Shown one piece after another: positions 25,680 to 41,124 of a DNA stretch of 64,000 nucleotides. A model generated the notes under the pieces. That model did no database searches. It saw only the letters and a program-made list of their open reading frames with translations, and had not been told where the DNA came from. Numbering within the stretch: the first letter of the stretch is position 1; each line of letters begins with the position of its first letter. This stretch comes from Frankiaceae bacterium. Lineage in GTDB: Bacteria > Actinomycetota > Actinomycetes > BP-191. A program made the position numbers and the translations under genes. Where the stretch lies: the NCBI GenBank assembly GCA_035940575.1, contig DASZER010000067.1, positions 7,729 through 71,728 of the forward strand, in the 5' to 3' direction.

Positions 25680-25832
25680 GGTTCCCCCGTGGCGGCGTGG
25701 CTGGAGGCCCCATCGTCGCCCGGGGGCGCGGCGCCGGTCCGCCGAACGGCCGAACTTGTCCCGATGCGGTCCCGGCGCGGCCTTCGCGCCGCTAGCCTGC
25801 CGGCACCGACTCAGTGGGGGGTTGTCTCGTTG

Positions 25833-28800
25833 ATGCGCCTTGCCAGGGCGGCGGCCGCGTGTGCCGTGGCCCTCTCCGTGGCCGCCGTCCCGGCGCTGCC
25901 CGCCTCCGCCGAGGAGCCCGTCGCGCCGGCCGCGCCGCCCACGATCGAGGTCGTCCCGACCCCGGAGGGCCCGCGCCTCGCGTGGGGTACCGCGCCCACC
26001 GGCGGCGGCACCGGCTACGCCGTCTACCGGCAGCGCACCGGCGACGCCGCGCCCGCGAAGGTCACGACCGTCCCGGCGAGCACCGAGTCGTACGTCGACG
26101 CCGACCTCGCGCGCGGCGAGCAGGCCGTCTACTCCGTCGCCACCGTCCAGGGCGACGTCGAGAGCACGCCGCGCACCGCGCCGTCGTTCACCCGGCTCGC
26201 CGCCGACCCGGCCGTCGGCACGACCGACGCGCACGTCGACGACACCGGCGCGGGCGTCGTCGTGAACGCCGGCCTCGCCCGCACCGGCGACCGCGTCCAC
26301 TCCGACACGACCACCGTCACGCTGCCGCGCGTCGGCGGCCCCGGCACGTACGACGCCACCGGCCTCGCCGTGACCCGCGCCGGCTCGCTCTGCACCGCCA
26401 CGTCCGGCTCCATCGCCGTGGACGAGGTCCTCTACGACGCCGCCGGCGCGCTGCTGACGTACGCCGCGTCCTGGAACGTCGACTGCGCCGGCACGCCCAC
26501 GCACGGCCTCGTGCGCTGGCACTCGGCGCGGCCGTACCAGGGCGTGCGCGGCACGGTGCCGGCGGGCGAGTGGCGCGTGCCGTCGGGCTCGTACGGCGAC
26601 CGCACGCTGACGTTCGCCTCGGTCGGCGACGCGCCGGTGACGTTCGGCGCGGCGACGCTCTCCGGCGCCGACGCGGCGTCGTTCGCGATCCAGGGCAACG
26701 CCTGCGAGGGCCAGTCGCTCGCCGGCGGCGCGACCTGCGACGTCGTCGTCCGCGCGACCGTCTCCGGCGCCACGACCCGCACGGCGACCGTCGCGCTCGC
26801 CGACGACACCGCGCGCGGCACCCGCGGCGCGACGCTGTCCGCGATCCCGTCCTCGGTGCCCGGCGCGCCGGCGAACGTCGGCCTGTTCGGCCTGCGCATC
26901 GGCGTGGTGTCGACCGGCTGGCAGGCGCCGGCATCCGACGGCAACTCGCCGGTGACGGCGTACCGGGTCTACCGCCGGGTCGGCGACGGCGAGCCCGAGG
27001 CGCTCGCGCAGGTGCCGGCGAGCTCCGTGGCGTACGACGACGCCCGCCCGCCCGGCTCGACGCAGCGCTACGGCGTCTCGGCCGTCAACGCGATGGGCGA
27101 GGGCCCGGTCGCGTGGCTGCCGCACGACGTGGACACCCCTGGCACCAGCGTGATCCACGGCGTCGGCGACGCCAGCCCGTACGGCATGGCGGAGACCGTG
27201 CCGTACGGCGTCGTCGCCAGCCCCTACGACGTCGGCGGCGCCGACGTGCGGCACGCCGCCGTGTCGCCCGACGGCACGAAGATCGCGTACGCGAGGGCCG
27301 TTGCCGTGGCGGACGGCGACCACACGAGCTACGACCTGTACCTGCGCAACGCCGACGGCACCGGCACGCCGGTCAACCTCACCGGCGGCCGGATGGGCGG
27401 GCAGAGCGAGGAGTACTGGCCGGCGTTCAGCAACGACGGCAGGTGGATCGCGTTCACCCGCGAGTTCGACGACACCATCTCGGTGTGGCACGTCTCGGTG
27501 AACGGCGGCGTGCCGGTCCACCGCGGCGACAACGTCGCCGACCCGACGTGGCTCCCAGACTCGCGCTCGCTCGTCGTCACCGACTACACGTCGGCGACCG
27601 CGCCGCTCGTGCGCATCGCGCCGAACAACGCGCGCACCGCCGTCCCGGGCACGACCGCCGGCGAGTACCCGGACGTCTCGCCCGACGGGAGGTGGCTCGC
27701 GTTCGCGAAGTACAACGAGTGGTACGACGTCTACGCGATCGGCGTCCTGCCGGTCACAGGCGGCACGCCGAAGTGGATGCCGCTCGGCCCCGGTGCCCCC
27801 GACAGGCTCGCGCCGGCGTGGGACGGCACGGGACGGCGGCTCGCGTACACCCTCGTCAACAACGACCTCGAGCGGATCGCCGTCGGGCTCGCCGACTGGG
27901 ACGGCTCGACGCTCTCCGCGGCGGGGCTCGTGGTCGAGCACCCGTCGTTCGAGCCCGCGTGGCGCTCGGTCGGCATGCGGTTCACGTCGGCGCCGTACGC
28001 CGTCGCGGGCTCTGTCACCGTCGGCATCGCGCTGTCGTCGCCGTTTCCGTCGGCGACCTGCACGCTCGACGCGCAGGCGGGCGTGCCGTGCACGACGTCG
28101 TTTTCGAGGTCGGGCCTGACCGCGGGGACGCACACGCTCGTCGTGCGCGCGACGTACGGCGCCTACTCGCGCGTGCTCTCGCACACGTTCACCGTCGACC
28201 GGGCCGGCCCCGTCATCACGATGCTCACGCCCACCGCGCTGTTCCACCTCGGGACGAGCGTCGGGTTCCGCTGGTCGGCCACGGACGCGACCGGCGTGGT
28301 GGCCTACGACGTGCGCTACCGCCGCGCGCCGTACAACGGCGGCTTCGGCGGGTACACCACGTCGAGCAACCGCCCGGGCCCGGGGTACTCGATCCCGACG
28401 ACGCGCGGCTCGACGTACTGCCTGTCGGTACGCGCCCGCGACACGCTCGGGAACTACTCCGGATGGACCGCGGAGCGGTGCAGCACGATGCCGCTCGACG
28501 ACAGGTCGCTGTCGGTGTCGTCCGGCTGGAGCCGGGGCTCCATGACCGGCTACTACGCCTCGACGTACACCGCGTCGAGCCGCCTCGGCGCGACGATGAC
28601 GCTCGGCAACGTCTCCGCGAAGCGGCTCGCGGTCGTCGCGACCCGCTGCTACGGGTGCGGCTCCGTCGCGGTCTACATCGGGACGTCGTACGTCGGCACG
28701 GTCAACCTCTCGGCGAGCACGACGCAGCACTCCTACGTGGCCGTGCTGCCGGCGTTCGCGTCCGTCAGGACGGGCACCGTGACGCTGCGCGTCACGACGT

Positions 28801-28847
28801 CGGGACGCGCCGTGCAGGTCGACGGCCTCGGGGTGTCGAAGGCCTGA
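25833..28847 (+). CDS. secreted multidomain protein: FN3 modules, TolB/PD40-like beta-propeller repeats and a C-terminal ~75-aa beta domain
   Basis: In-frame ATG 25833 inside ORF 24396..28847, with a signal peptide. PD40-like repeats are SPDGTKIAY, SNDGRWIAF and SPDGRWLAF. Confidence 0.85.
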   Translation: MRLARAAAACAVALSVAAVPALPASAEEPVAPAAPPTIEVVPTPEGPRLAWGTAPTGGGTGYAVYRQRTGDAAPAKVTTVPASTESYVDADLARGEQAVYSVATVQGDVESTPRTAPSFTRLAADPAVGTTDAHVDDTGAGVVVNAGLARTGDRVHSDTTTVTLPRVGGPGTYDATGLAVTRAGSLCTATSGSIAVDEVLYDAAGALLTYAASWNVDCAGTPTHGLVRWHSARPYQGVRGTVPAGEWRVPSGSYGDRTLTFASVGDAPVTFGAATLSGADAASFAIQGNACEGQSLAGGATCDVVVRATVSGATTRTATVALADDTARGTRGATLSAIPSSVPGAPANVGLFGLRIGVVSTGWQAPASDGNSPVTAYRVYRRVGDGEPEALAQVPASSVAYDDARPPGSTQRYGVSAVNAMGEGPVAWLPHDVDTPGTSVIHGVGDASPYGMAETVPYGVVASPYDVGGADVRHAAVSPDGTKIAYARAVAVADGDHTSYDLYLRNADGTGTPVNLTGGRMGGQSEEYWPAFSNDGRWIAFTREFDDTISVWHVSVNGGVPVHRGDNVADPTWLPDSRSLVVTDYTSATAPLVRIAPNNARTAVPGTTAGEYPDVSPDGRWLAFAKYNEWYDVYAIGVLPVTGGTPKWMPLGPGAPDRLAPAWDGTGRRLAYTLVNNDLERIAVGLADWDGSTLSAAGLVVEHPSFEPAWRSVGMRFTSAPYAVAGSVTVGIALSSPFPSATCTLDAQAGVPCTTSFSRSGLTAGTHTLVVRATYGAYSRVLSHTFTVDRAGPVITMLTPTALFHLGTSVGFRWSATDATGVVAYDVRYRRAPYNGGFGGYTTSSNRPGPGYSIPTTRGSTYCLSVRARDTLGNYSGWTAERCSTMPLDDRSLSVSSGWSRGSMTGYYASTYTASSRLGATMTLGNVSAKRLAVVATRCYGCGSVAVYIGTSYVGTVNLSASTTQHSYVAVLPAFASVRTGTVTLRVTTSGRAVQVDGLGVSKA

Positions 28848-28849
28848 GC

Positions 28850-29815
28850 ATGCGCAGGACGGTCGCCGCCGTGCTCGCGGCGAGCGTCCTCGCCGCGGGG
28901 CTCGCGGGCGCGTCCTCGGCCGCTCCGGCCCGCCCGCCGCTGCGCTGCACGGGCACCGGACGCGTGCGGTCGTGCACGGTCTTCACGACGCTGAAGGTCC
29001 GCAGCAACGCCGTGCGCGTCGTGTTGCCCGCGTCGTACCGGCCTGGCCGGCGCTACCCCGTGGTCTACGTCCTGCACGGCGTGGGCGACGACGAGACGTC
29101 CTGGACCGACCCGAAGCGCGGCGACCTCGCGGCCCTGACCGCGACGTGCGAGGCCATCTTCGTGACGCCCGACGGCGGGAGCGGGCGCGTCGCCGGCTGG
29201 TACTCCGACTGGCAGGACGGCTCCTACGACTGGGAGCGCTACCACGTCGAGGACCTGCGGCTCGGCGTCGAGGCGACGTTCGGCACGACGGGCAGGCGCG
29301 CGGTCGCGGGCCTGTCGATGGGCGGCTTCGGCGCGATGTCGTACGCCGCCCGCAACCCGTCGCTCTACCGCGCCGCCGCGTCGTACTCCGGCTTCCTCGA
29401 CACGATGTTCGCCGCGCCGGCGACGGGCGCGTTCTACGACGCGAGCGGCCAGAACGACGTCTACTCGACCGGCGCGCCGAGCCGCGGCGTCTGGGGCGAC
29501 CAGCAGGCGGACGCGGCGACGTGGCGCGCGCACAACCCGTGGGACCTCGTGCCGAGCCTGCGCCACACCGCGCTCTACGTCTCCGGCGGCACCGGCGTCG
29601 CGGCGCCGTCGGCGCCGGCCACCGCGCCCATGAACGCCGTCGAGGCGTACACGCGGACGCTCACCGACCGCTTCGTCGCGCGGCTCGACGAGGCCGGGAT
29701 CCCCTACACCGACGGCCGCTACGACGGCGGCTCGCACGAGTGGCCGTACTGGCGCGCGGCGTTCACCGACAGCCTGCGCGTGCTGATGCCCGCCGTCGGC
29801 GCCCGTCCCTGCTGA
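28850..29815 (+). CDS. secreted esterase (esterase D / mycolyltransferase-like alpha/beta hydrolase)
   Basis: In-frame ATG 28850 inside ORF 25814..29815, with a signal peptide. YPVVYVLHG and the nucleophile elbow GLSMGG are present. Confidence 0.85.
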   Translation: MRRTVAAVLAASVLAAGLAGASSAAPARPPLRCTGTGRVRSCTVFTTLKVRSNAVRVVLPASYRPGRRYPVVYVLHGVGDDETSWTDPKRGDLAALTATCEAIFVTPDGGSGRVAGWYSDWQDGSYDWERYHVEDLRLGVEATFGTTGRRAVAGLSMGGFGAMSYAARNPSLYRAAASYSGFLDTMFAAPATGAFYDASGQNDVYSTGAPSRGVWGDQQADAATWRAHNPWDLVPSLRHTALYVSGGTGVAAPSAPATAPMNAVEAYTRTLTDRFVARLDEAGIPYTDGRYDGGSHEWPYWRAAFTDSLRVLMPAVGARPC

Positions 29816-29886
29816 CCTTTCGCGACCCCGCACGGCGGCGTCGTCGCGCGTAGCGTCGAGGCAACCGTCCGATTGGGGGGGTCCTC

Positions 29887-30223
29887 GTGCTCCGTCGTCT
29901 GTCCGTCGTCGCCGCGACCGCGACCGTCGCGCCCGCCTAGGCCACCGACTCCGTCCCCGGCGCCCGGCGTCCAGGCGCGGCGCCTCGCGCTCGTCGGCAC
30001 GCGCTGCCCGTCGTGCGGCGTGGTGGACCTGTTCATGGGCACCTCGCGCGTCGCCCGGATCGACATGGCGGGCACCCTGCTGAACAAGGCGCAGTGGGTG
30101 ATCCCGGCGTTCGCGTCGGTGCGTTCGGGCTCGGTCAGCCTGCGGGTCGTGTCGACCGGCAAGACCGTCCAGATCGACGGGATCGGCGTCAGCCGCGTGG
30201 CCTACGTCAGGCTGCCGTTCTGA
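29887..30223 (+). pseudogene. decayed mini-paralog: signal-peptide codons, in-frame TAG, frame change, then a copy of the C-terminal domain of the 25833..28847 protein
   Basis: GTG 29887 encodes VLRRLSVVAATATVAPA, then TAG at 29938-40. Another frame (ORF 29873..30223) encodes RRLALVGTRCPSCG...PAFASVRSGSVSLRVVSTGKTVQIDGIGVS, homologous to residues near 28620-28847. Confidence 0.45.
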
Positions 30224-31568
30224 ACCAGCCGACCCCGGTCGTCGCGCAGAGGCCCGCGGCGTTGCAGGCCCGCAGCGCGAACTCGTACGTCGTCGCGGGC
30301 CGCAGCCTCCCCGCCTCGACCCGGTAGTACGCGCGGCTGCCCGCGGCGACCGACGTCGTGAAGCCGTTCGTGACGTTCCACGTGCTCGCGCCCTTGGTGC
30401 GCACGTAGAACAGCGCGCGGTCCACCCCCGGCACGCGGTCGGTGACCACGGCGCTCATCGTGCCGGTGACGGGCATCGTCTGGGAGCCGCTCGTCGGGCG
30501 GATCGACGACGGGACCCCGGGCGCGTTGACGACGCGCTTCGCGGCGAGCACCCGCCGGACGCTCGCGATCGCGCTCGCGCGCGGGTACGTCCCCGCGTCG
30601 ATCGCCGCCCGGATCCTCGACATCACGGGGAGCGGGTCGCTCGTCACGAGCGCCATGTCCGCGCCCGCGCGCAGCGCGCGCACGGCGGCGTCGGCGGGGG
30701 ACAGGCCCATGTTCGTGATGGCCGCCATCGACAGCGAGTCGGTGAGGATCAGCCGCGCGCCGCCGAGGCGCCGGCGGAGGTAACGCATCGCGTTCGGCGA
30801 CAGGCTCGCGGGGACGCCGCTCTCGGTGAGGCCCGGCACCTTGAGGTGGCCGACCATGACGCTCGGGACGCCGTTCGCCATGACCGTGTCGAACGGCACC
30901 ATGTCGCGGCTCTGCATCGTCGACAGCGGCGGCGTCGTGGCGCCGCCCGCGTGCGTGTCGGTCGCCTGGCCGTGGCCCGGCCAGTGCTTCGCGCTCGTCA
31001 GCACGCGCGCGGAGCGCATGCCCCGCAACCACGCCGTCGTGAACGCGCCCACGGTGCTCGGGCTCGTCGCGAACGCGCGGTCGCTGCGTTCCATGTAGTA
31101 GCCGTCGATCTTCAGGTCCGCGACCGGCGCGAGGTCGAGGTCGACGCCGAGCGCGCGCATCCTGCGGCCGTAGTCGTAGGCGATCGCCTGCACCTGGCTC
31201 GTCGTACGCGTCGCGCCCATCGTCTCCGCGCTCGGCAGCGCGTAGATGACGCTCTCGAGCCGCTGGACCTGCCCGCCCTCCTCGTCGGAGGCGACGAACG
31301 GCACCACCGGCCCGGCCGCGCGCACCGACGCGAGCTGCGCTCCGAGGTTCGACGGCGGCGTGCCGAGCAGCACGATGCCGCCGATGCCGTTCGCGACCCA
31401 GGTCCTTGCCGTGGACAGGCTCGACATCGGCACGCCCGCCATCACGAGCTGGCCGGCGAGCTGCGTGCTCGTCCAGTTGTTCGGGTCGTTCGAGTACGCG
31501 GCGTGCGCCGGCGCCGGGATCGCGACGAGGACGAGGGCGGTGGCGGCTACGAACGCGCGTCCGGACAC
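30207..31568 (-). CDS. secreted glycoside hydrolase family 3 (NagZ-like beta-N-acetylhexosaminidase) with a C-terminal FN3-like domain
   Basis: ORF 30207..31568 with a signal peptide. VASDEEGGQVQRL, the KHWPGHG motif and LAPVADL are present. Confidence 0.85.
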   Translation of the reverse strand: MSGRAFVAATALVLVAIPAPAHAAYSNDPNNWTSTQLAGQLVMAGVPMSSLSTARTWVANGIGGIVLLGTPPSNLGAQLASVRAAGPVVPFVASDEEGGQVQRLESVIYALPSAETMGATRTTSQVQAIAYDYGRRMRALGVDLDLAPVADLKIDGYYMERSDRAFATSPSTVGAFTTAWLRGMRSARVLTSAKHWPGHGQATDTHAGGATTPPLSTMQSRDMVPFDTVMANGVPSVMVGHLKVPGLTESGVPASLSPNAMRYLRRRLGGARLILTDSLSMAAITNMGLSPADAAVRALRAGADMALVTSDPLPVMSRIRAAIDAGTYPRASAIASVRRVLAAKRVVNAPGVPSSIRPTSGSQTMPVTGTMSAVVTDRVPGVDRALFYVRTKGASTWNVTNGFTTSVAAGSRAYYRVEAGRLRPATTYEFALRACNAAGLCATTGVGWFRTAA

Positions 31569-32437
31569 GCGGCTGACGATAGCGACAGCACCCCGGCGAA
31601 CCTGTCACCTTCGGCGGCCACCGTGTCGAGCGCGCGTTGCGGGTCATACGTGAGCTCCTCGGCGTCGGCGCGTTCGACGGCATCCCACGGCACCGGCATC
31701 GAGACCGTAGGGACGCGCAGCGCGCGCAGGGAGTACGGCGCCACGGTCGACTTGCCCCTGTCGTTCTGGCTCCAGTCGACGAGCACCTTGCCGGGCCGCA
31801 GCGACCGCGTCATGCGGTCCACGACGCGTTCGGGCGTCTCGCGGGCGAGCGCGGCGGCGAGGCGCTTGGCGTAGCCCTTGGTGGCGTCGTACGTCGCGTC
31901 GCGCAGCGGGACGTAGACGTGGATGCCCTTGGCGCCGCTCGTCTTGGCGTAGGCCGCCAGGCCGTCGGCGTCGAGCCGCTCCCTCACTCGGAGCGCCACC
32001 TCGCACGCCTCGCGCAGGCCGGCGGGCGGGCCCGGGTCGAGGTCGAACACCATCACCAGCGGCCGTTCCTGCGCCTCCGCGAGCCCGAGGAACGGGTGGA
32101 TCTCGACGGTCGACAGGTTGCCCGCCCAGACGAGGCTCGGGAGGTCGTCGAGGACCGGCGACTCGAACGTCTTGCCGCTGCGCTCGTACGCCATCCGCGC
32201 CGTGCGCACCCACGGCGGGTGCGGAGGCGTCCGCGTCTGGAAGAAGTGCGGCCCGCCGACCCCCTCGGGGAAGCGGTGCAGCGTCACGGGCCGTCCCGCG
32301 ACGTGGGGGAGGAGCACGTGCGCGACGCGGACGTAGTAGTCGATGACCTCGGCCTTGGTCGTGCCCGTCGCCGGGTAGAGGACGCGGTCGAGGCTCGACA
32401 CGGCGACGTCGCGGTCGAGCACCCGCAGCGTCGTCAC
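31547..32437 (-). CDS. stand-alone LigD-type primase-polymerase (Prim-Pol) domain protein
   Basis: Last 296 aa of ORF 31547..33484, from GTG 32437 (GTGA overlap with the ligase stop). Motifs LVMVFDLDPG, KTSGAKGIHVYVPL and VLVDWSQN. Confidence 0.85.
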   Translation of the reverse strand: MTTLRVLDRDVAVSSLDRVLYPATGTTKAEVIDYYVRVAHVLLPHVAGRPVTLHRFPEGVGGPHFFQTRTPPHPPWVRTARMAYERSGKTFESPVLDDLPSLVWAGNLSTVEIHPFLGLAEAQERPLVMVFDLDPGPPAGLREACEVALRVRERLDADGLAAYAKTSGAKGIHVYVPLRDATYDATKGYAKRLAAALARETPERVVDRMTRSLRPGKVLVDWSQNDRGKSTVAPYSLRALRVPTVSMPVPWDAVERADAEELTYDPQRALDTVAAEGDRFAGVLSLSSAACPDARS

Positions 32438-33402
32438 GCGAGCTGCTCCACCGTGCACGAGCGCGGGTCGCGGTCGGGGCGCCAGCGCACCAGGCGCGCG
32501 GGGTGGCGGAAGCGGATGCCGTCGAGCACGGTGTACGCGACCTCGGCGACGAGCTCGGGGCGCAGGGGCACCCAGTCCATCGACATGCCCGGGGCCCAGC
32601 GTCCGGACGAGCCCTTGAGGCGCCCCATGTGCCCGCCCTCCAGCGCGAACCCGTTCTCCCAGGGATGCCCGCGCAACGGCGTGACGTACCTCGCGAGGTC
32701 GTCGGGCGCGGGGCCGCTCGTCACGACGCCGACGTGGCGCAGCGCGTCGCCCTCCCACACGCCGAGCAGCAGGCTCGCCACCCTCGGCGCGTCGGGCGTC
32801 CCGCCGAGGCGCATCCCGGCGACGACGCAGTCGACGGTCCGGACCCGCTTCACCTTGACCATCGCGCGCCTGCCCTGCTGGTACGGCAGGTCGGCGCGCT
32901 TCGCGACGACGCCGTCGAGCGCGCCGCCGGGCGGCGCGTCGAGCCAGCGCCGCGCCTCGTCCGGGTCCGTCGTCGTGGGGGTGGCGCAGACGTTCGGTGG
33001 CGCGCCGGCGAGGAGGCGTTCGAGCCGGGCGCGGCGGTCGGCGAACGGCTCGCCGGTCACCACGTCGAACGCGACGTAGCTCGCCGGCGTCTCCGCGCTC
33101 AGCCGCGCGACGCGCGAGGCGGCCGGGTGCAGCCGCGCCATCAGCGCGCCGAAGTCCGCGCGGCCGTCGCGCCACGCGAGCAGCTCGCCGTCGAGGACGT
33201 ACGCCCGCTCGGGCAGCGCGAGCAGCGACGCGACGACCTCGGGGAAGTAGCGGGCGAGCGGCTTGCCGTGCCGGCTGCGCAGGTCGACCGTGTCGCCGTC
33301 GCGCGTCGCGACGCAGCGGAACCCGTCCCACTTCGGCTCGTACGTCCAGCCCTCGCCGACCGGCAGGTCGTCCGCGGACTTCGCGAGCATCGGCACGATC
33401 AC
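32434..33402 (-). CDS. ATP-dependent DNA ligase, short LigC/LigD-ligase-domain type
   Basis: ORF 32434..33402. Adenylation motif I is EPKWDGFR. Also DGELLAW and MVKVKR (motif V-like). Confidence 0.85.
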   Translation of the reverse strand: MIVPMLAKSADDLPVGEGWTYEPKWDGFRCVATRDGDTVDLRSRHGKPLARYFPEVVASLLALPERAYVLDGELLAWRDGRADFGALMARLHPAASRVARLSAETPASYVAFDVVTGEPFADRRARLERLLAGAPPNVCATPTTTDPDEARRWLDAPPGGALDGVVAKRADLPYQQGRRAMVKVKRVRTVDCVVAGMRLGGTPDAPRVASLLLGVWEGDALRHVGVVTSGPAPDDLARYVTPLRGHPWENGFALEGGHMGRLKGSSGRWAPGMSMDWVPLRPELVAEVAYTVLDGIRFRHPARLVRWRPDRDPRSCTVEQLA

Positions 33403-33538
33403 GCCATACGACGTACCCGTGCCACCTCGCGCACAGTCGCCGCGTCAGCGAGGAACGGTTGAACCCGCGGTGCCGCGAACCCACTCATCAAGGACATGCC
33501 GGGCGCCAGGCCCGGTCCCAGATTGGGGGGTTACCACC

Positions 33539-33937
33539 ATGCGTCTCGTCTCCGCGTTACCGCTCGTCGCGCTCGCGGCCGTCACGCTCGCCGCGCCCGC
33601 GGCGTCGGCCGAGCCGATCTGCACCGGCACCGCCGAGGACGCGAAGGTCTGCGTCGACCCGGCGGGCACGCCCGGCGCGAGCCTCGAAGGATCGCTGTTC
33701 TCGCGCTGCCTGTTCGTGCCCACCATCCCCGAGTGCACGACCGTCTCCGTGCCCGGCGTGCGGATCACGTCGGGCGACGTGCCGCTCGTCACGTGCGAGG
33801 GCCCGCAGTGCCCGCCGCAGGGCGACCCGGTCCCCGACACCGGCCCGCTGCCGGGCGGCGGCGGCTGCGGCGACCCGACGCAGCGCGGCCCGGTCATCCC
33901 GAGGATCGTGGTCTGCATCCAGGAGGGCCACCTCTGA
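33539..33937 (+). CDS. small secreted Cys-rich protein (paralog of 35312..35836)
   Basis: In-frame ATG 33539 inside ORF 33263..33937. Signal peptide MRLVSALPLVALAAVTLAAPAASA. The mature part has 8 Cys. A TGGGGGGT leader motif lies upstream. Confidence 0.75.
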   Translation: MRLVSALPLVALAAVTLAAPAASAEPICTGTAEDAKVCVDPAGTPGASLEGSLFSRCLFVPTIPECTTVSVPGVRITSGDVPLVTCEGPQCPPQGDPVPDTGPLPGGGGCGDPTQRGPVIPRIVVCIQEGHL

Positions 33938-33974
33938 GTCGCGAGGGGGTCCTGCCGCGCCCGCGGCAGGGCCC

Positions 33975-34658
33975 CTACCCGCGCCGGGACCTCGCGTCGC
34001 CGTTCTCCCTCCTGGGGACCGGCGGGACGGCGCGGGCGGTGCGGAGGAAGATCCCGGGCACCTCGACCAGGGTCGCGGCCGCGAGGACGTTCTCGAGGTT
34101 GCCGAGCAGCGGCGCGACGCCGCCCCCGAGGAAGTACGCCGCCGTCAACCCCGCCGCCGTGCCGCTGGCGTACTCCAGACGCGGCTTCGCGAGGAACCAG
34201 TCCAGCACCCGCCCGAGCCGCCGGCCCGCGTCGCGGGCGCGCATCCTCACGGCCGCCACCACGAACCCCACGCCGTGCCGGAGCTGCGCGCGCCCCGGCT
34301 CGCCCCGCGCCTCGGCGAGCACCCGCCGGTACTCCTCGCGGCGGAACGCGCGCTTGCGCCCGCCGATCAGCGCGGCGAGGTCGGCGAGCCGCCACGCCGC
34401 CGCCGGCCCGATCCGCCGCATCGCGCGGCCGCGGCGTACGAGCTCGCGGGCGAGCCGTTCGGGGGCGCCCGACGTGACGAGGTCGATCACGAAGAAGGTC
34501 GTGCCCATCCCCATGAGCGCCCAGCGGAATGAGTCCCACCCGGACTCCCCGTCGATCCAGACCCCCGCGACTGCCGCGGTGGTGGCCGAGAGCGCGGCGG
34601 CGAGGACGAGCGGCGCCCACCACGGCAGCGGTCGGTTCCGGTCGCGGCGCGGGCTCAC
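33975..34658 (-). CDS. membrane protein co-transcribed with PadR
   Basis: Last 227 aa of ORF 33975..37493, from GTG 34658 (GTGA overlap with the padR stop). Hydrophobic segments include WWAPLVLAAALSATTAAVAGVW and MGMGTTFFVIDLV. Confidence 0.7.
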   Translation of the reverse strand: MSPRRDRNRPLPWWAPLVLAAALSATTAAVAGVWIDGESGWDSFRWALMGMGTTFFVIDLVTSGAPERLARELVRRGRAMRRIGPAAAWRLADLAALIGGRKRAFRREEYRRVLAEARGEPGRAQLRHGVGFVVAAVRMRARDAGRRLGRVLDWFLAKPRLEYASGTAAGLTAAYFLGGGVAPLLGNLENVLAAATLVEVPGIFLRTARAVPPVPRRENGDARSRRG

Positions 34659-34954
34659 GGGGTCACCCCGCGCGGGGCGAACGACCGGCGCGTACGGCCG
34701 CGCGAGTGCTGCTCGTACCAGACCCGCCCCGCGCCCGTCACCGTGTAGAAGCGGCGGCGGGGCCGGTCGTCGGGCTGCGCCGCCTCCCACTCGCCCACGA
34801 TCAGCCCGGCCTCCTCGAGCCGGTCGACGATCGGGTAGACCGTGCCGGAGCCGAGGCCCGACTCGTCGATGATCCGGTAGCCCCATGCCGGGTCCTCCGG
34901 CGGCGCGCCCATGATCACGTCGAGCACCAGCCGGGTGGCGGTCGTGAAGCGCAT
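34655..34954 (-). CDS. PadR-family transcriptional regulator
   Basis: ORF 34655..34954. GYRIIDESGLGSGTVYPIVDRLEEAGLI...RRFYTVTGAG is the PadR winged-HTH signature. Confidence 0.9.
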   Translation of the reverse strand: MRFTTATRLVLDVIMGAPPEDPAWGYRIIDESGLGSGTVYPIVDRLEEAGLIVGEWEAAQPDDRPRRRFYTVTGAGRVWYEQHSRGRTRRSFAPRGVTP

Positions 34955-34971
34955 GCGCTCCCTCTACCCCT

Positions 34972-34987
34972 ATGTCGAGGACGACAC
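34972..34987. promoter_or_regulatory. PadR-operator-like ATGT-N8-ACAC element
   Basis: ATGTcgaggacgACAC read directly, 18 nt upstream of the padR start in the divergent intergenic region. It is one base off the ATGT-N8-ACAT consensus described for PadR regulators. Confidence 0.3.
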
Positions 34988-35057
34988 ACACCCTGTAATC
35001 ACCGGCACGACCGCGCGTGTGTCGTGCACCAGGTACCCACTCCCGAGAGGCGCCGCC

Positions 35058-35315
35058 ATGCTCCGTACGACTCGCCGTGCCGCCGCGCTGATGGCGGTCG
35101 CGGCCGCCGCGGCGCCCGCCCTGCTCGCCGCGCCCGCCGAGGCCGCGATCACCTGCGTGGGCAGGGTCGTCGTCGAGGGCTGGACGGGCGTCTGCGTCAA
35201 CGCCGACGGCACCGGCGGCTCCTGGCTCGTCTGCGCCCGCGACGGCAGGAACTTCCCGGCGAACGAGGTCTACCTCCCCAGGCACGGGACGACCGACCAC
35301 GCCTGCCGCCCGTGA
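35058..35315 (+). CDS. small secreted 4-Cys protein
   Basis: In-frame ATG 35058 inside ORF 34911..35315. Signal peptide MLRTTRRAAALMAVAAAAAPALLAAPAEA. The stop overlaps the next gene's start (GTGA). Confidence 0.65.
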   Translation: MLRTTRRAAALMAVAAAAAPALLAAPAEAAITCVGRVVVEGWTGVCVNADGTGGSWLVCARDGRNFPANEVYLPRHGTTDHACRP

Positions 35316-35836
35316 CGCGTCCCGCGCGTCCCCGCGTCGGAGCCTCCCTGGCCCTCGCCTTCCTGGTCGCGACCGCGCCCGCCGCGTCGGCCGCCCCGAG
35401 CTGCGCGGGCACCGAGGAGGACCTCGTCGTCTGCGTGGACGCCGAGGGCGGCCCGTCGCGGGGCACCCGCGGAGAGCTCCTCTCGCGCTGCCTCTACCTG
35501 CCGACCGACCCCGCCTGCCGGGAGGTGACCGTGCCGAACGTCGTCCTGTACGACGGCGAGGGACGGCTCGTGTCGTGTGGCGGATTCGTGTGCGACAACG
35601 TGCTCTGTACGGCGGACCCGACGAGGGACCACGTCCTCTGCTGGCTACCCCCGGTGCAGCGCGAGCACCGAGTCGATCGTGTCCGCCTCGTCGGGCCGCT
35701 TGTCCTCGCGGTAGCGCAGCACCCGCGCGAACCGCAGCGCCACGCCGCCGGGGTAGCGCGGCGAGGCCTGCACGCCGTCGAACGCGATCTCCACGACCAG
35801 CTCGGGACGCACGAACACCTGCCACTCGTTGCGTGA
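35312..35836 (+). CDS. small secreted Cys-rich protein (paralog of 33539..33937) with a 3' extension overlapping the convergent ligase gene
   Basis: GTG 35312 in the frame of ORF 34529..35836. Signal peptide ...ASLALAFLVATAPAASA. A gapless hand alignment to the paralog gives 32/67 identities with six Cys aligned. The first stop comes only at 35836. Confidence 0.65.
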   Translation: MTRPARPRVGASLALAFLVATAPAASAAPSCAGTEEDLVVCVDAEGGPSRGTRGELLSRCLYLPTDPACREVTVPNVVLYDGEGRLVSCGGFVCDNVLCTADPTRDHVLCWLPPVQREHRVDRVRLVGPLVLAVAQHPREPQRHAAGVARRGLHAVERDLHDQLGTHEHLPLVA

Positions 35837-37180
35837 CGCCTCCAGCGCGAGCAGGCGTTCGGTCTGCCACGCGAGCAGCTCGTCGGTGAGCCCCTTGAAC
35901 GTCTTCCCCAGCATCACGAACGACCCCGACGCCGGGTCGCGCGCGCCGAGGTGGAGGTTCGAGAGCCAGCCGCGCCGCCGCCCGTGCCCCCACTCGGCCG
36001 CGAGCACGACGAGGTCGAGCGTGTGCCTCGGCTTCACCTTGAGCCACGCCGCGCCGCGGCGGCCCGCCTCGTACGCCGCGTCGAGCGACTTGGCGACGGC
36101 GCCCTCGTGCCCGCGCGCGACCGCGCCGTCGAAGAACGCCCGCGCCTCGTCGGCGGAGCCGGTCACCAGGCGCGGCACGGCCGCGTCCCCGGCGACGGAC
36201 GCCAGCGCGTCCCACCGCGCACGGGCCGGCGCGCCGAGCAGGTCGGTGCCGTCGAGGTGCAGCACGTCGAACCAGAACGGCGTCAGCGGCACGTCGCCGC
36301 GCGCCCCCCGCGTGGCGACCCGCGAGCCCGTGACCTGGAACGGGCGCGGCCGCCCGTCGTCGTGCAACGCGATCGCCTCGCCGTCGAGCACCACCTCGCC
36401 GGCGGGCAGCGCCAGCGCCGCCGCGACGAGCTCGGGCACCCGCGCCGTCACGTCGTCCAGCGTCCGCGTGAACACGCCGACCTCGCCGCCGCGCCGGTGG
36501 ACCTGCACGCGAACGCCGTCGAGCTTCCACTCCCACGCGGCCTCGCCGAGGCGCGCGACGGCGTCGTCCACGTCCACCGCGGGCGAGGCGAGCATCGGCT
36601 GGACCGGCCGGCCCATCTCGAGCCGGAACGACGCGAGCGCCGCGACGCCGTCGCGCCACAACGCCTCCGCCACCGGCGCCAGCGCCCCGCGCAGCATCGC
36701 CGCGCGGCGCACGTCGTCGGCCGCCGCGCCCGCCGCGCGGGCCACCGCGTCGGTGACCAGCGACTCCAGCGCGCCCTGCCGCAGCTCGCCCGCGACGAGC
36801 CCGACGAGCAGGCGCCGTTCCGTCGCGGTCGCGCGCTCGAACAGCGAGCCGAGCAGCCGCCGCCGCTCGGCCACCGAGCCCGCGCCCGCGCACGCCGCGA
36901 TGCGGTCGAACGTCTCGTCCACCTCGCGCACCGTCAGCACCGGCTCCTCGCACGGGCCGGGCAGGTCGGCCAGCGAGCGGTACGCCACGCCGGTGCGCCG
37001 CTGCGTCAGCTCGCCCGACAGGTACGACACGACGACCGCGACGTCGTCTGCCGAGGCCGCGCGCAGGCAGCCGGCGAGCAGCGCGACCTTGGCCGACCGC
37101 GACCGCGTCGCGGCCACCTCGTCGGAGGTCCGCGCGACCTCGCTCAGCAGCACCCGCCCATTCTCGTAGGGTCTGCCCAT
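35645..37180 (-). CDS. ATP-dependent DNA ligase, long LigB-type (N-terminal DNA-binding domain, adenylation domain and OB fold)
   Basis: ORF 35645..37180. Motif I is EWKLDGVR. Also DGEAIAL, EGAVAKS and WLKVKP. GTG 37153 (VLLSEVARTS) is an alternative start. Confidence 0.9.
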   Translation of the reverse strand: MGRPYENGRVLLSEVARTSDEVAATRSRSAKVALLAGCLRAASADDVAVVVSYLSGELTQRRTGVAYRSLADLPGPCEEPVLTVREVDETFDRIAACAGAGSVAERRRLLGSLFERATATERRLLVGLVAGELRQGALESLVTDAVARAAGAAADDVRRAAMLRGALAPVAEALWRDGVAALASFRLEMGRPVQPMLASPAVDVDDAVARLGEAAWEWKLDGVRVQVHRRGGEVGVFTRTLDDVTARVPELVAAALALPAGEVVLDGEAIALHDDGRPRPFQVTGSRVATRGARGDVPLTPFWFDVLHLDGTDLLGAPARARWDALASVAGDAAVPRLVTGSADEARAFFDGAVARGHEGAVAKSLDAAYEAGRRGAAWLKVKPRHTLDLVVLAAEWGHGRRRGWLSNLHLGARDPASGSFVMLGKTFKGLTDELLAWQTERLLALEASRNEWQVFVRPELVVEIAFDGVQASPRYPGGVALRFARVLRYREDKRPDEADTIDSVLALHRG

Positions 37181-37553
37181 GGCGTTCGTGCGGCGGGTCG
37201 GTCAGGCGTGTCTCGCGACGGTGTTCGTCAGCGGCGGGCTCGACGCGCTGCGCGACCCGGGCTCCCGCGCCGGGAAGGCGAAGCCGGTCGCGGACGCCCT
37301 CGGCGTCGACGGCACGACGCTCGTCCGGGCCAACGCCGCCGCGATGGTCGCGGGCGGCCTCGCCCTCGCCACCGACCACCTGCCGCGCACCGCCGCCGCG
37401 GGGCTCGCCGCGAGCCTCGTGCCGACGACGCTCACGGGGCACCCGTTCTGGACGGAGAAGGACCGCGACCGCAGGCGCGATCAGCGCGTGCACTTCGCCA
37501 AGAACGTCAGCCTGTTCGGCGCGTGCGTGATCCTCGCCACGTCGAAGCGGTGA
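37179..37553 (+). CDS. DoxX-family membrane protein
   Basis: ORF 37179..37553. It is small and hydrophobic, with FVSGGLDAL and HFAKNVSLFGA patterns. Confidence 0.75.
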   Translation: MAFVRRVGQACLATVFVSGGLDALRDPGSRAGKAKPVADALGVDGTTLVRANAAAMVAGGLALATDHLPRTAAAGLAASLVPTTLTGHPFWTEKDRDRRRDQRVHFAKNVSLFGACVILATSKR

Positions 37554-38305
37554 TCGGCGACCCCGACGACCCGCGGCTCGCGGACTACCGCGCCCTGCGC
37601 GACCCCGCGACGCGGGTGGCGTACGAGCGCGAGCACGGCGTGTTCGTGGTCGAGGGGACGCTCGCCATCGCCAACCTGCTGGCGTCGCCGTACGAGGTCC
37701 GCTCGCTGCTCGTCACGCCCGCGATGCGCGAGCGCCTCCCCGCCACCGACGCGCCCGTCTACGTCGCCGAGCGCGAGGTGATGGCGGCGGTCGCGGGGTT
37801 CGACGTGCACCGCGGCGCGCTGGCGATCGCGACCCGCCCGCCGCCGCGCGAGGCCGCCGACGTCCTGCGCGACGCGCGCACCGTCCTCGCGCTCGAACGC
37901 CTCAACGACCACGAGAACGTCGGCGTGCTGTTCCGCGTCGCCCGCGCGCTCGGCGCCGACGCGGTGCTGCTCGACGGCGAGACGTGCGACCCGCTGTACC
38001 GCCGCGCCGTCCGCGTCTCGCTCGGCCACGTGCTGCACGTGCCGTTCGCGCGGACCGACGACCTGCTCGGCGCGCTGGCGTCGTTCACGACGGTCGCGCT
38101 CACACCGTCGGCGGAGACGCGCCTCGAGGACGTACCGCCGCCCGAACGCGTCGCGCTCCTGCTCGGCGCCGAGGGGCCAGGCCTGCGCCGGGAGACGATC
38201 GAGCGAGCCGGCGTCCGCGCGCGGATCGCGATGCGCGCGGGCGTCGACTCGCTCAACGTCGCGACCGCCGCGGCGATCGCGCTGCACAGGCTCGGGCGCG
38301 TCTAG
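37550..38305 (+). CDS. TrmH/SpoU-family RNA 2'-O-methyltransferase
   Basis: GTG 37550 (GTGA overlap) in the frame of ORF 35951..38305. Motifs NDHENVGVLFRVARALG, LLLGAEGPGL and DSLNVATAAAIALH. Confidence 0.85.
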   Translation: MIGDPDDPRLADYRALRDPATRVAYEREHGVFVVEGTLAIANLLASPYEVRSLLVTPAMRERLPATDAPVYVAEREVMAAVAGFDVHRGALAIATRPPPREAADVLRDARTVLALERLNDHENVGVLFRVARALGADAVLLDGETCDPLYRRAVRVSLGHVLHVPFARTDDLLGALASFTTVALTPSAETRLEDVPPPERVALLLGAEGPGLRRETIERAGVRARIAMRAGVDSLNVATAAAIALHRLGRV

Positions 38306-38307
38306 AC

Positions 38308-38457
38308 CTAGCGCACGCAGGGGGAGTCGCGCACGACCTCGCAGACGGCGTTGACGGCGTCGCACGGCAGGCCGACGCAGGCCGACGCGGGCGGGGCGAA
38401 CGACAGGGCGGCCGCCGCGGTGAGGGCGGCGAGGGCGAGGACGCGGGCACGGCGCAC
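38308..38457 (-). CDS. 49-aa secreted micro-protein with a 4-Cys mature peptide (hypothetical)
   Basis: GTG 38457 inside ORF 38308..38496, preceded by GGAGAA 4 nt upstream. Signal peptide VRRARVLALAALTAAAALSFAPPASA followed by CVGLPCDAVNAVCEVVRDSPCVR. Confidence 0.5.
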   Translation of the reverse strand: MRRARVLALAALTAAAALSFAPPASACVGLPCDAVNAVCEVVRDSPCVR

Positions 38458-38564
38458 GGGGTTCTCCGGGGGGTGAGTGGACGCGGGCGGCGCCAAGTGT
38501 GCTTCAGTCGCAGCGCTTGGACCAGACGAACCAGTGCATTTCCACCATCACAGGGGGTTCCCTC

Positions 38565-39767
38565 ATGCACGGAGCACGGTCCGCACTACTCGCCGCCGCG
38601 GCGCTCGCCGTCACCGCCCTCACGGTGCCGGCCCGCGCGGACGGGCCCGGCGTCGGCACGCCGTGGGTCGTCACGGTCGGCGACTCGTACATCTCCGGCG
38701 AGGCCGGCCGCTGGGCCGGCAACACGAACGACGGCGAGCAGTACCACGACGCGCTCGGCTCGACCGCGTACTTCGACAACGCCTCCCGCACCGCCGAGAC
38801 CATCGACCGCTGCCACCGCTCGTGGGCGGCGGAGGCGTTCGTCGGAGGCGGGATCAACGGCGCCAACCTCGCGTGCTCCGGCGCGCGCACGTCGACGTTC
38901 ACCGACGGCGACGGCAGGTTCAAGCCGGGCCTGGACTTCTACCTCGACTCGTACGGCCAGCAGGGGCAGGCGCGCGCGCTCCAGGCGTTCGCGACGACCC
39001 ACAACGTCAAGCTCGTCGTCGTCTCGATCGGCGGCAACAACTTCAACTTCGGCTCGGTCGTGAGCCGCTGCGTCGAGGACTTCCTCGCCTCGCCGTCGTG
39101 GTGGCCGGACTACTGCAAGGACGACTCCGACGTCACCGCCAACTTCACGTCGACCAACGTCAGCGCGCAGACCACCGCCATCAGGAACGCGCTGCTCAAC
39201 GTCCGCCAGGCGATGACCAACGCCGGCTACGGCTCGGCGGCGTACACGATCCTCGTGCAGAACTACATGAGCCCGATCCCGCGCGGCAGCGGCTTCCGCT
39301 ACTCGCAGTCGGGCTACACGCGCCAGTCCACCGGCGGCTGCGGCTTCTGGAACGCCGACGCCGACTGGGCCAACGACTCCGCGCTGCCGACCATCAACAA
39401 CGCCGTCGCCAACGCCGTCACGGCCAGCGGCATCACGAACATCAGGACGCTCAACCTGTCGACGGCGTTCAACGGCCGCCGCCTCTGCGAGAGCACGGTC
39501 GGGCTGATCGAGGAGAAGGGCCTGTGGGACTGGCGTTCCGCGGGCGCGGTCGACCAGACGGAGTGGGTCAACCAGATCCGCACGGTCACGACGTGCTGCG
39601 GCAACTACTACCTGCAGGAGTCGCTGCACCCGAACTACTGGGGCCAGCTCGCGCTGCGCTCCTGCGTGCGGCTCGCGTACAACGCGGGCACGCCGCGCGG
39701 CGGCTCGTGCCGGATCTACTCGACCGGCCTGAGCTCGCGCGGCGAGCCCGTGATGACGCTGGTCTAG
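38565..39767 (+). CDS. secreted SGNH/GDSL-family hydrolase (lipase/esterase)
   Basis: ATG 38565 inside ORF 38499..39767, with a signal peptide. Block I is VTVGDSYISGE, block III is SIGGNNF, and the C-terminal LHPN carries the catalytic His context. Confidence 0.85.
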   Translation: MHGARSALLAAAALAVTALTVPARADGPGVGTPWVVTVGDSYISGEAGRWAGNTNDGEQYHDALGSTAYFDNASRTAETIDRCHRSWAAEAFVGGGINGANLACSGARTSTFTDGDGRFKPGLDFYLDSYGQQGQARALQAFATTHNVKLVVVSIGGNNFNFGSVVSRCVEDFLASPSWWPDYCKDDSDVTANFTSTNVSAQTTAIRNALLNVRQAMTNAGYGSAAYTILVQNYMSPIPRGSGFRYSQSGYTRQSTGGCGFWNADADWANDSALPTINNAVANAVTASGITNIRTLNLSTAFNGRRLCESTVGLIEEKGLWDWRSAGAVDQTEWVNQIRTVTTCCGNYYLQESLHPNYWGQLALRSCVRLAYNAGTPRGGSCRIYSTGLSSRGEPVMTLV

Positions 39768-40552
39768 GGCTCCGTCGGGGTGGCGGTCTCCGGCTTGAAG
39801 AGGCCGAAGGCCGCCCCCTGCGGGTCCCGCAGGATCGCGAACGTCCCGCCCGGGATCGGCGACGGCGGCACCATCACGGTCGCGCCGAGCGCCGCGGCCT
39901 CGCCGACCAGCTTGTCGATGTCGGCGGGCTGGAAGTACGGCATCCAGTACGGCGGCACGTCGGCCGGCATGTCGGGCGACTTCGCCATCATCCCGGCGAC
40001 GCTGCGCCCGCCCTGCTTGAACTCCGTGTACGGCATCGGGCCGCCGGCCTCGGACGTCTCCTCGCCCCAGCCGAACACCTCGCCGTAGAAGCGCTTCGCG
40101 CCCTCGACGTCGGTCGTCGTCAGCTCCACCCACGTCAGCGCGCCGGCCTCGTCCTGCACCTGCGCGCCCTTGTGGTCCCCGGCCTCCCACAGCGAGAAGA
40201 ACGCGCCCGCCGGGTCCTGGAGCACGGCCATGCGCCCCGACGTGTACACGTCCACGGGACCGGCGACGACGGTGCCGCCCGCGCCGCGGACCGTGTCGAG
40301 CATCGCGTCGAGGTCGTCGGTCGCGAAGTACACCGACCACGCGGTGGCGCCGGGCATCTGCGCGGGGCCGTAGCCGCCGACGTAGCGGCCGTCGAGGGTG
40401 AACATGCCGTAGCCGCCGGCGTCGTCCATCGGCACGTCGTCGGCCCGCCAGCCGAGCAGCGTGGCGTAGAACGTCCGCGTCGCCGGGACGTCCGACGAGC
40501 TGACGTCGACCCAGCTCGGCTCGCCCTGCGCGTATCCGGACTTCTCGGTCAT
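39764..40552 (-). CDS. two-domain VOC (glyoxalase/bleomycin-resistance/dioxygenase) family protein
   Basis: ORF 39764..40552. It contains a duplicated FYxxxxGW...GxxAxLxDPxGAxFxLW module. Confidence 0.85.
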   Translation of the reverse strand: MTEKSGYAQGEPSWVDVSSSDVPATRTFYATLLGWRADDVPMDDAGGYGMFTLDGRYVGGYGPAQMPGATAWSVYFATDDLDAMLDTVRGAGGTVVAGPVDVYTSGRMAVLQDPAGAFFSLWEAGDHKGAQVQDEAGALTWVELTTTDVEGAKRFYGEVFGWGEETSEAGGPMPYTEFKQGGRSVAGMMAKSPDMPADVPPYWMPYFQPADIDKLVGEAAALGATVMVPPSPIPGGTFAILRDPQGAAFGLFKPETATPTEP

Positions 40553-40763
40553 CGCGTCCTCCGTGCACTCGTCACCTGGCGTCGGCGCGACGGTAACAGT
40601 CCCGGTTCCCTCGCTTGGCGCGGGGGGCGAGGGGTACCGTCAACGGCGGCGCCGGCTCGATCCATGGCCCCCGGTCCCAACCTTGTCGCTACGAGCGACA
40701 CACCGCCGAGAGGCGACCTGGCGGGCCGGCGCCGTTCGTCTGCCGTTCCCCGAAGGAGTCCGC

Positions 40764-41120
40764 TTGCCCGAGGCACCGCGCCCGCGGCGTCCCGTCCTGC
40801 TTTCGCCCGACGTCGTGGCGATGGTCAGCGACGCGAGCCTGGACACGACGCCCAGGGCCGAGCTGCTCGAACGCCTCGAGTCCGCGCTGCGCCTGCTGCC
40901 GCCGGCCGAGCGGCGCGCGGTGCTGACCGCGCACGCCTCCGACGACGGCCTCGACCACGTCGCCGGCGACATGGGCCTGTCCGCCGAGGAGGCCGACGCG
41001 CTGACCCGCAACGCCGTCCAGCTCCTGCGCGGCGCGCTCGCCGACCTCGAGCCCGAGCCCACCCCGGACTTCCCGAGGCTGGCCCCGCCGGACGTCATGC
41101 CGACGCACCGCCCGGAGTAG
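40764..41120 (+). CDS. small sigma-70 region-4-like HTH protein
   Basis: TTG 40764 lies 5 nt after GAAGGAG, in the frame of ORF 40563..41120. LPPAERRAVLTAH...GLSAEEADALTRNAVQLLR resembles sigma region 4. Confidence 0.55.
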   Translation: MPEAPRPRRPVLLSPDVVAMVSDASLDTTPRAELLERLESALRLLPPAERRAVLTAHASDDGLDHVAGDMGLSAEEADALTRNAVQLLRGALADLEPEPTPDFPRLAPPDVMPTHRPE

Positions 41121-41124
41121 CGCC

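Follow-up and report, generated by a model that had tools for sequence, protein, structure and literature searches.

Two putative orphan families of exported disulfide proteins form a recurrent gene pair in uncultured soil actinobacteria

What are the small Cys-rich proteins encoded between two DNA ligase genes in a Frankiaceae bacterium, and do they belong with the padR gene that lies among them? The window studied here is a stretch of 64,000 nucleotides (nt; contig DASZER010000067.1 of assembly GCA_035940575.1, positions 7,729 to 71,728). An earlier note on this DNA had described two paralogous genes for secreted Cys-rich proteins (here A1 and A2), a third small secreted-protein gene (B) and a padR/membrane-protein pair between the paralogs. 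All open reading frames (ORFs) of the block were found at the coordinates given in that note:

33539-33937, + strand: A1, 132-residue precursor of a Cys-rich protein of exported type
33975-34658, - strand: membrane ORF, 227 residues, coupled to padR by a GTGA overlap
34655-34954, - strand: padR, 99 residues, a stand-alone winged-helix regulator of the PadR type
34955-35057, no strand: divergent control region between padR and B-A2, 103 nt
35058-35315, + strand: B, 85-residue precursor of a four-Cys mature protein
35312-35836, + strand: A2, whole ORF, 174 residues
35312-35650, + strand: conserved part of A2, a signal peptide plus 86 residues with eight Cys
35651-35836, + strand: tail of A2, 62 codons antisense to the 3' end of ligB

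The A1 and A2 products aligned in BLASTP without gaps (41/82 identical, 50%) at E=8e-17. This value is composition-adjusted. Loss of the similarity under a proper alignment statistic, which the earlier note had listed among the outcomes that would refute it, was thus not observed. The hand alignment reported there (32/67 identities) was borne out by tblastn of the mature cores, which gave 48.5% identity over 66 residues, and the DNA of the two genes retains 77% identity over 77 nt and 71% over 65 nt at a spacing of 1782 nt. Both genes have a coding-type GC content at third codon positions (GC3), and their description as homologous genes with signal peptides and Cys-rich products is upheld. The count of six Cys is not, as each mature protein has eight.

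In a tree of the family, A2 grouped with the proteins P0012 and P0013 (support 96/97) and A1 with P0005-P0007. Because each copy groups with its own orthologs, the duplication predates the divergence of these genomes. The orthologs of A1, found in three other genomes, are 63-76% identical to it over the precursor and 65-79% over the mature part. These comparisons show that A1 and A2 are old, diverged paralogs. Their family, which we call family A, comprises small exported proteins, is restricted in lineage and has not been described before.

The A1 precursor has a 24-residue, Ala-rich signal peptide ending in ASA, followed by a mature protein of 108 residues with eight Cys. The first 70 of these residues form a conserved core, which is followed by a Pro/Gly-rich linker and a conserved C-terminal RGPVIPRIVVCI tail. 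Both mature A proteins of the window are acidic (isoelectric point (pI) 4.3), whereas B is neutral. Across the family the core spans about 50 residues with the pattern C-x-G-T-x-E-D-x3-C ... R-C-x7/8-C-x2-V-x-V-P. The mature start reads [DEA]-P-x-C-x-G-T-x-E-D-x3-C-V, the later segment R-C-[VL]-x-[VL]-P-x2-P-x-C-x2-V-x-V-P, and the core Cys are spaced C-x9-C-x(10-19)-C-x(7-8)-C. Only these four Cys, together with G6, T7 and P48, are invariant. Accessory Cys occur as pairs three to eight residues apart downstream of the core or as a second pair in the variable tail, a placement suggesting that they bond with their nearest neighbours. The number of Cys is even (4, 6 or 8) in 16/16 mature A sequences and 5/5 mature B sequences, as expected for fully disulfide-bonded extracellular proteins. 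Signal peptides, as read from the sequence, have a basic n-region, an h-region of Ala, Leu and Val, and ASA or AEA before the mature start in all members. In one relative, P0017 (contig L015, 125-835), a linker rich in Pro and Thr connects the A domain with a four-Cys domain of 115 residues that is unrelated to it, a fusion that marks the A domain as an autonomous module. We liken this architecture to that of the carbohydrate-binding modules in secreted actinobacterial enzymes. The C-terminal domain of P0017 had no match in the PDB, in Pfam or among the four-Cys 137-residue proteins of a related locus described below.

Family A is rare. A word-indexed search of 5.8 billion proteins returned three relatives of A1, and the family profile, run by hmmsearch exhaustively against 1.84 billion cluster representatives, returned 10 clusters, almost all from soil metagenomes or metagenome-assembled genomes (MAGs); a broader profile returned 11 proteins. 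The sole named relative is a 'hypothetical protein' from a soil Mycobacteriales MAG, and the others were assembled from metagenomes, where most lie on contigs of 0.7-4 kb. Scans of genome, metagenome and viral contigs, together with tblastn against plasmids, revealed no further A or B loci. The earlier note had not recognised the Cys-rich domain as any named family, and the searches agree: family A had no match in Pfam, NCBIfam or PADLOC, its profile found nothing among PDB sequences even at E<=10, and its best named-family match was a weak one in PHROGs (E=0.056). Two distant members differ in their surroundings. P0019 lies between ABC-transporter and RND-adaptor genes in a context that appears Gram-negative. 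P0014 adjoins two small ORFs for secreted Cys-rich proteins of 89 and 95 residues that overlap by 13 nt (contig L014, 892-1161 and 1149-1436, both - strand), so that here too small secreted proteins rich in disulfides are clustered.

The five genes of the block have GC3 values of 0.97 (A1), 0.96 (B), 0.92 (A2 core), 0.98 (padR) and 0.97 (membrane ORF). We judged all five to be coding, since values of 0.92-0.98 are the usual coding signature of this genome. The ratio of nonsynonymous to synonymous rates (dN/dS), by the Nei-Gojobori method and with dS compressed by the extreme GC3, was 0.53 for A1 against its MAG ortholog (dN 0.19), 0.32 for B against its homologue P0009 and 0.68 for A2 against P0012. 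By the same method the neighbouring genes ligB, DoxX, SpoU and SGNH gave dN/dS of 0.26-0.40 and dN of 0.06-0.12. The Cys proteins are therefore constrained, yet change at the protein level about twice as much as their neighbours. High-GC DNA yields many long spurious ORFs, and the tail of A2 is one of them, so that the genes themselves could be artefacts with chance or compositional similarity. We give this account next to no credence: the A1-A2 match holds with composition-adjusted statistics, GC3 is 0.92-0.97 in the proposed frames, and independent metagenomes contain orthologs that keep the Cys and have dN/dS below 1. The BLASTP, family-search, GC3 and dN/dS results together refute it.

The B precursor comprises a 29-residue signal peptide and a 56-residue mature protein with four invariant Cys and the motif CVG..EGWTG.C...W.VC.RD...P...VY.P...C.P. 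Its signal peptide (35058-35144) contains TRRAAAL, a twin-arginine (Tat)-like sequence that is kept in P0009. Sec remains the default reading of its export because other B homologues lack the RR pair. B is rarer than A: two relatives emerged from the index search and two more from reading the ORFs beside A genes.

In the window the B stop and the A2 start overlap in GTGA at 35312-35315, confirming the translational coupling proposed for the two genes. A B homologue also lies directly 5' of an A gene at three other sites, represented by four contigs:

L006: B, a 180-nt gap, then the A1-type gene P0007
L009: two copies of B, a 33-nt gap, then an A2-type gene
L013: a sister assembly to L009 that extends the same locus into ligB
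L010: P0010 (B), a 37-nt gap, the A2-type gene P0013, then an ORF for an insertion sequence (IS)-like transposase helix-turn-helix (HTH) domain (784-1122)

Apart from the N-terminal HTH ORF of L010, on a contig of 1.1 kb, nothing near the family members hints at mobility. The pairing covers both A subtypes and persists with B identity down to 46-57%. B is the most consistent partner of family A. As judged by gene order and sequence, these loci show that B-then-A is a conserved two-gene cassette of two undescribed families of apparently exported proteins. The pairing is not obligatory, since neither A1 in the window nor either A gene of the MAG has an adjacent B.

We considered whether A and B are themselves related and rejected this, as hhalign gave a probability of 0.6%. 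One stretch of 40 nt is 70% identical between A1 (33647-33686, KVCVDPAGTPG) and B (35190-35229, GVCVNADGTGG). This likeness is probably due to chance because it is confined to B of the window and a near-identical ortholog, and because hhalign sees no relation.

What might such a pair do? Our preferred reading, to which we assign a probability of about 0.55, is that A and B are non-catalytic extracellular binding proteins that form a B+A pair; it includes, as the best explanation of the locus as a whole, the coupled PadR scenario set out below. The two proteins would be exported by Sec, freed of their signal peptides by cleavage at AxA, and folded oxidatively into compact, disulfide-locked domains. 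They would then act outside the cell, probably together and without catalysis, on a ligand of the envelope or the environment, for instance an extracellular hydrolase or a glycan. The small size, the Sec-type signal, the apparently paired Cys, the lack of a catalytic motif and the autonomy of the A domain all point to binding proteins, as do the conserved B-A cassette, the moderately fast evolution and the variable locus.

SSI (the Streptomyces subtilisin inhibitor), tendamistat and the metalloprotease inhibitor SMPI are Sec-exported, non-enzymatic, disulfide-stabilised proteins of about 8-11 kDa from filamentous or soil actinobacteria, singly encoded and with four Cys. The A and B proteins resemble them in being small, of exported type, probably beta-rich, non-enzymatic, disulfide-stabilised and soil actinobacterial. 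They differ in lacking sequence similarity to them (in Pfam and PDB sequences), in the eight Cys of A1 and A2 against four, in being encoded as a two-gene B-A cassette rather than as single genes, and in being restricted to a handful of uncultured lineages. By analogy with SSI or SMPI, A, with or without B, might be a secreted inhibitor of extracellular proteases. Small, acidic, exported-type and disulfide-locked proteins fit such a role, and a dN above that of the neighbours is expected if the target changes. At one locus, L005, the A1-type gene P0006 lies about 2-3 nt from a convergent gene for an InhA-like M6 metalloprotease (682-2154, - strand). The part encoded there is C-terminal and includes a MAM-like domain, PKD domains and a sorting signal (LPSTG). 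Such a neighbour was seen at just one of about eight loci, however, no inhibitor family was matched in Pfam or among PDB sequences, and a reactive-site loop is not definable without a structure. We therefore regard inhibition as an unlikely function.

A second alternative arises from the database matches of B. Against Pfam, NCBIfam and PADLOC B had no match, and Pfam stayed blank even at E<=10. Its best PHROGs match had E=0.0069, and its best PDB matches, at E=0.07-0.12, were lectins of the OAAH family (Oscillatoria agardhii agglutinin homologues); none of these was rated significant. The profile found 4fbo at E=0.12 and nothing else, and the single sequence found 4fbr at E=0.07. Every OAAH repeat aligns to the invariant B motif W(T/G)G...GG.W[LV][VL].ARD..N. 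With the lectins 4fbo, 4fbr and 7dc0, mature B (35145-35312) shares W-G/T-G ... G-G-x-W-[LV]-[VL]-x-A-R-D-x-x-N and a hydrophobic strand after it. B and A could accordingly be lectin-like, glycan-binding envelope proteins, with B as a disulfide-stapled miniature of one OAAH repeat. The invariant Trp and Tyr of B would suit a sugar-binding surface, and the linker fusion of P0017 is of the kind seen in carbohydrate-binding modules. We nevertheless hold this account to be doubtful. In addition to the E-values and the Pfam result, hhalign of B against an OAA sequence gave a probability of 0.6%, and the spacing of the two Trp varies among B members and differs from that of OAA. With 50-56 residues and two presumed disulfides, B would account for some three of the five strands in a repeat, whereas OAAH repeats have about 66 residues, lack the four Cys of B in the aligned segments and build a 10-stranded tandem-repeat barrel that B does not show.

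A more elaborate proposal joins these elements into a previously unseen two-protein module for extracellular recognition. In it, B would be a mini-lectin stapled by disulfides that either derives from one OAAH-type repeat or has converged on it, and A a new disulfide-rich fold that docks to B. The module would be diversified in the slot described next and switched by the padR/membrane pair in response to envelope signals. We consider this combination a long shot, and return to the plainer reading of A and B as paired extracellular binding proteins.

The earlier note had pictured the block as a single module of 2.2 kb inserted between two ligase loci. The flanks are as first described, with Prim-Pol and ligC-type ligase genes on the left and a ligB-type ligase gene on the right, which is followed by DoxX and then a SpoU methylase:

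about 31547-32440, - strand: LigD-type Prim-Pol gene, left flank, context
32434-33402, - strand: short ligC-type ligase gene, left flank, context
33946-33975, no strand: GC-rich 14-bp hairpin between the convergent A1 and membrane genes, arms 93% complementary
35645-37180, - strand: full-length ligB-type ATP-dependent DNA ligase gene (N, M and C domains), conserved and anchoring the locus on the right, context

To place the block in its genomic setting, we aligned by blastn the window and the locus of the closest relative compared, the Mycobacteriales MAG (L001, about 84% nucleotide identity). The MAG aligned to 16.4-24.4 kb of the window (genes for YfhO, GT4 and PAC2, a PNGaseA-like gene and a DsbA-like gene), to 33560-33919 (A1 alone, at 84% identity) and to 35656-41123 (ligB through the downstream genes). 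Two segments between these have no counterpart at the MAG site. The first, of 9.2 kb (24365-33560), holds the genes for a large TolB/FN3 protein and a GH3 enzyme as well as Prim-Pol and ligC; in its place the MAG has a 229-residue ORF and another A paralog, P0011, so that its Cys-protein genes come within 1 kb after the DsbA-like gene. The second (33919-35656) comprises padR with the membrane gene, and B with A2. Here the MAG instead has two paralogous genes for four-Cys secreted proteins of 137 residues, 55% identical to each other (L001 8507-8920 and 8937-9347), for which nothing was found in Pfam or among PDB sequences. With these two genes between them, A1 still lies about 1 kb from ligB in the MAG.

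From this alignment, A1 beside ligB is the resident arrangement and ligC/Prim-Pol the variable part. In another metagenome B-A2-ligB is conserved, and a second B copy rather than padR lies upstream of B. Because a third genome thus has B-A2-ligB with no padR beside it, a single insertion does not account for the block, and the single-module picture fails on the retained A1-ligB neighbourhood and on the absence of ligC/Prim-Pol from the MAG. The earlier statements that the block has no compositional anomaly and no mobility gene do hold: GC is flat at 72-78% around it, and neither a mobility gene nor flanking direct repeats nor plasmid or viral relatives were found. The locus is best described, on these alignments, as a variable slot beside ligB in which small secreted-protein genes appear to be gained, lost and duplicated.

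A variable slot and relatively fast evolution are also what a secreted two-protein, bacteriocin-like antimicrobial might display, with the padR/membrane pair as regulated self-protection. The IS-type transposase HTH gene after the cassette in L010 and the PadR-controlled membrane protein directly beside the cassette in the window would fit. We think this very unlikely. A1 and A2 are acidic and B neutral, whereas bacteriocins are mostly cationic. A gene devoted to export or processing is lacking, as is a conserved immunity gene, and none of the other A or B loci in view includes padR or the membrane gene. Plasmids, viral contigs and defence models gave no matches. The variable slot is compatible with the extracellular binding proteins that we prefer, whose possible regulation in this genome we now consider.

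The padR product belongs to the PadR family (PF03551, E=1.8e-11, 44.3 bits against a cutoff of 27) and also matches weakly the Rv3488 family and PadR models. This match and the GTGA overlap at 34655-34658 bear out the claim of a genuine padR gene coupled to a membrane ORF, and its divergent orientation to B-A2, with 103 nt between padR and B, was likewise as described. In the product of the membrane ORF, a single strong transmembrane segment lies at the N-terminus (residues 13-36); its other hydrophobic segments are weaker, its middle region is rich in Arg, and it had no family match in Pfam or NCBIfam.

Within the control region, ATGTcgaggacgACAC at 34972-34987 lies 18 nt from the padR start and has one mismatch to the PadR operator consensus ATGT-N8-ACAT. 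An inverted repeat with 16-nt arms (34981-34996 and 35010-35025) overlaps it. The 64 kb contain four such operator-like sites against 1.5 expected; at 1.5 per 64 kb, about 0.0025 would be expected in the 103-nt region, so its placement there by chance is unlikely. We regard 34972-34987 as a candidate PadR operator, and autoregulation by PadR and, in this genome, co-regulation of B-A2 as plausible. PadR would probably repress its own operon and B-A2 via the ATGT-N8-ACAC site until a membrane-linked signal releases it. The padR/membrane pair may be a separate signalling pair, of the common type of a PadR with a coupled membrane protein, that shares a control region with B-A2 in this genome only.

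At the loci examined, padR was not visible beside any other A or B gene: the upstream gene is an unrelated ORF in L006 and another B copy in L009. The co-occurrence of PadR with the Cys domain, which the earlier note had proposed to survey, did not materialise, as there was no link between a PadR domain and A outside this window. The padR/membrane pair and the DNA ligases are not conserved partners of the Cys proteins.

HAAS-PadR dyads have been proposed as alternatives to two-component systems (PMC11237479). Like such a dyad, the pair in the window consists of a stand-alone PadR gene with a membrane-protein gene immediately after it on the same strand, here GTGA-coupled, and it adjoins genes for envelope or extracellular proteins. 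Unlike in a dyad, the membrane ORF opens with a transmembrane segment instead of a soluble three-helix N-terminal domain. We do not class the pair as a HAAS-PadR dyad because the defining HAAS domain was looked for and not found.

Several observations weigh against the reading of A and B as a PadR-controlled pair of extracellular binding proteins. A1 stands without an adjacent B, and at the MAG locus, where there are two A genes, no B occurs within 16 kb. Most of the related contigs measure 0.7-4 kb, so that gene context is thin. The assignment as binding proteins draws on size, export signal, disulfides and the lack of catalytic motifs, since no usable structure model was obtained: AlphaFold reached a predicted local distance difference test (pLDDT) score of 35.7 for mature A1 with six sequences and 45.5 for the 70-residue A core with 15 sequences, both unusable. 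On the regulatory side, the candidate operator is a one-mismatch site, and the membrane ORF has no DUF1700, DUF1129 or DUF1048 (HAAS) match at E<=1. Finally, the RNA runs searched for the block genes include none that contains them, and protein evidence was likewise not found.

Conservation of A2 stops at the eighth Cys (...HVLCWLP, about 35650), which is the position of the ligB stop on the opposite strand. The 62 further open codons mirror the codon bias of ligB (GC content 0.97 at first codon positions (GC1), GC3 0.79) and are not conserved in orthologs. P0012 also enters ligB, in another frame and for only 70 nt (L013 408-477) against about 190 nt for A2, and P0013 ends two residues past its last Cys. 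An assembly error as the source of the tail was rejected, since an independent assembly agrees base for base, with no indel; this is weak support because that second assembly was built from data of the same run. We take the tail most readily for unconstrained read-through at a point that lacks a stop codon, and do not count the end at 35836 as part of the domain.

At the other end of the block, the hairpin at 33946-33975 has a folding energy of -41.7 kcal/mol (z = -4.2), and 0/200 shuffles were equally stable. It looks like a bidirectional terminator, though without a T-tract. Consensus scans for sigma-70 promoters and T-tract terminators found nothing, as expected for this type of organism. 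The window also encodes, after the gene for the SpoU methylase, a secreted four-Cys micro-protein of 49 residues (38308-38457, - strand). It is kept at the same place in the MAG (L001 12015-12161, - strand) with 65% amino-acid identity and dN/dS of 0.48, and this conservation of position and sequence indicates that it is probably a genuine gene.

Taken on their sequences, A and B appear as two new orphan families of secreted disulfide proteins of uncultured soil actinobacteria. Both are ordinary-looking and of modest interest, and they open no long-standing question. Their sole distinctive trait is the conserved B-then-A pairing, which also offers a concrete experimental handle. Small, stable, disulfide-locked binding proteins of actinomycetes have been useful as enzyme inhibitors and scaffolds. 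If our reading is correct, two families not described so far and, probably, a small disulfide-rich fold that is new and still beyond AlphaFold would be added to the little-charted secretome of uncultured soil actinobacteria.

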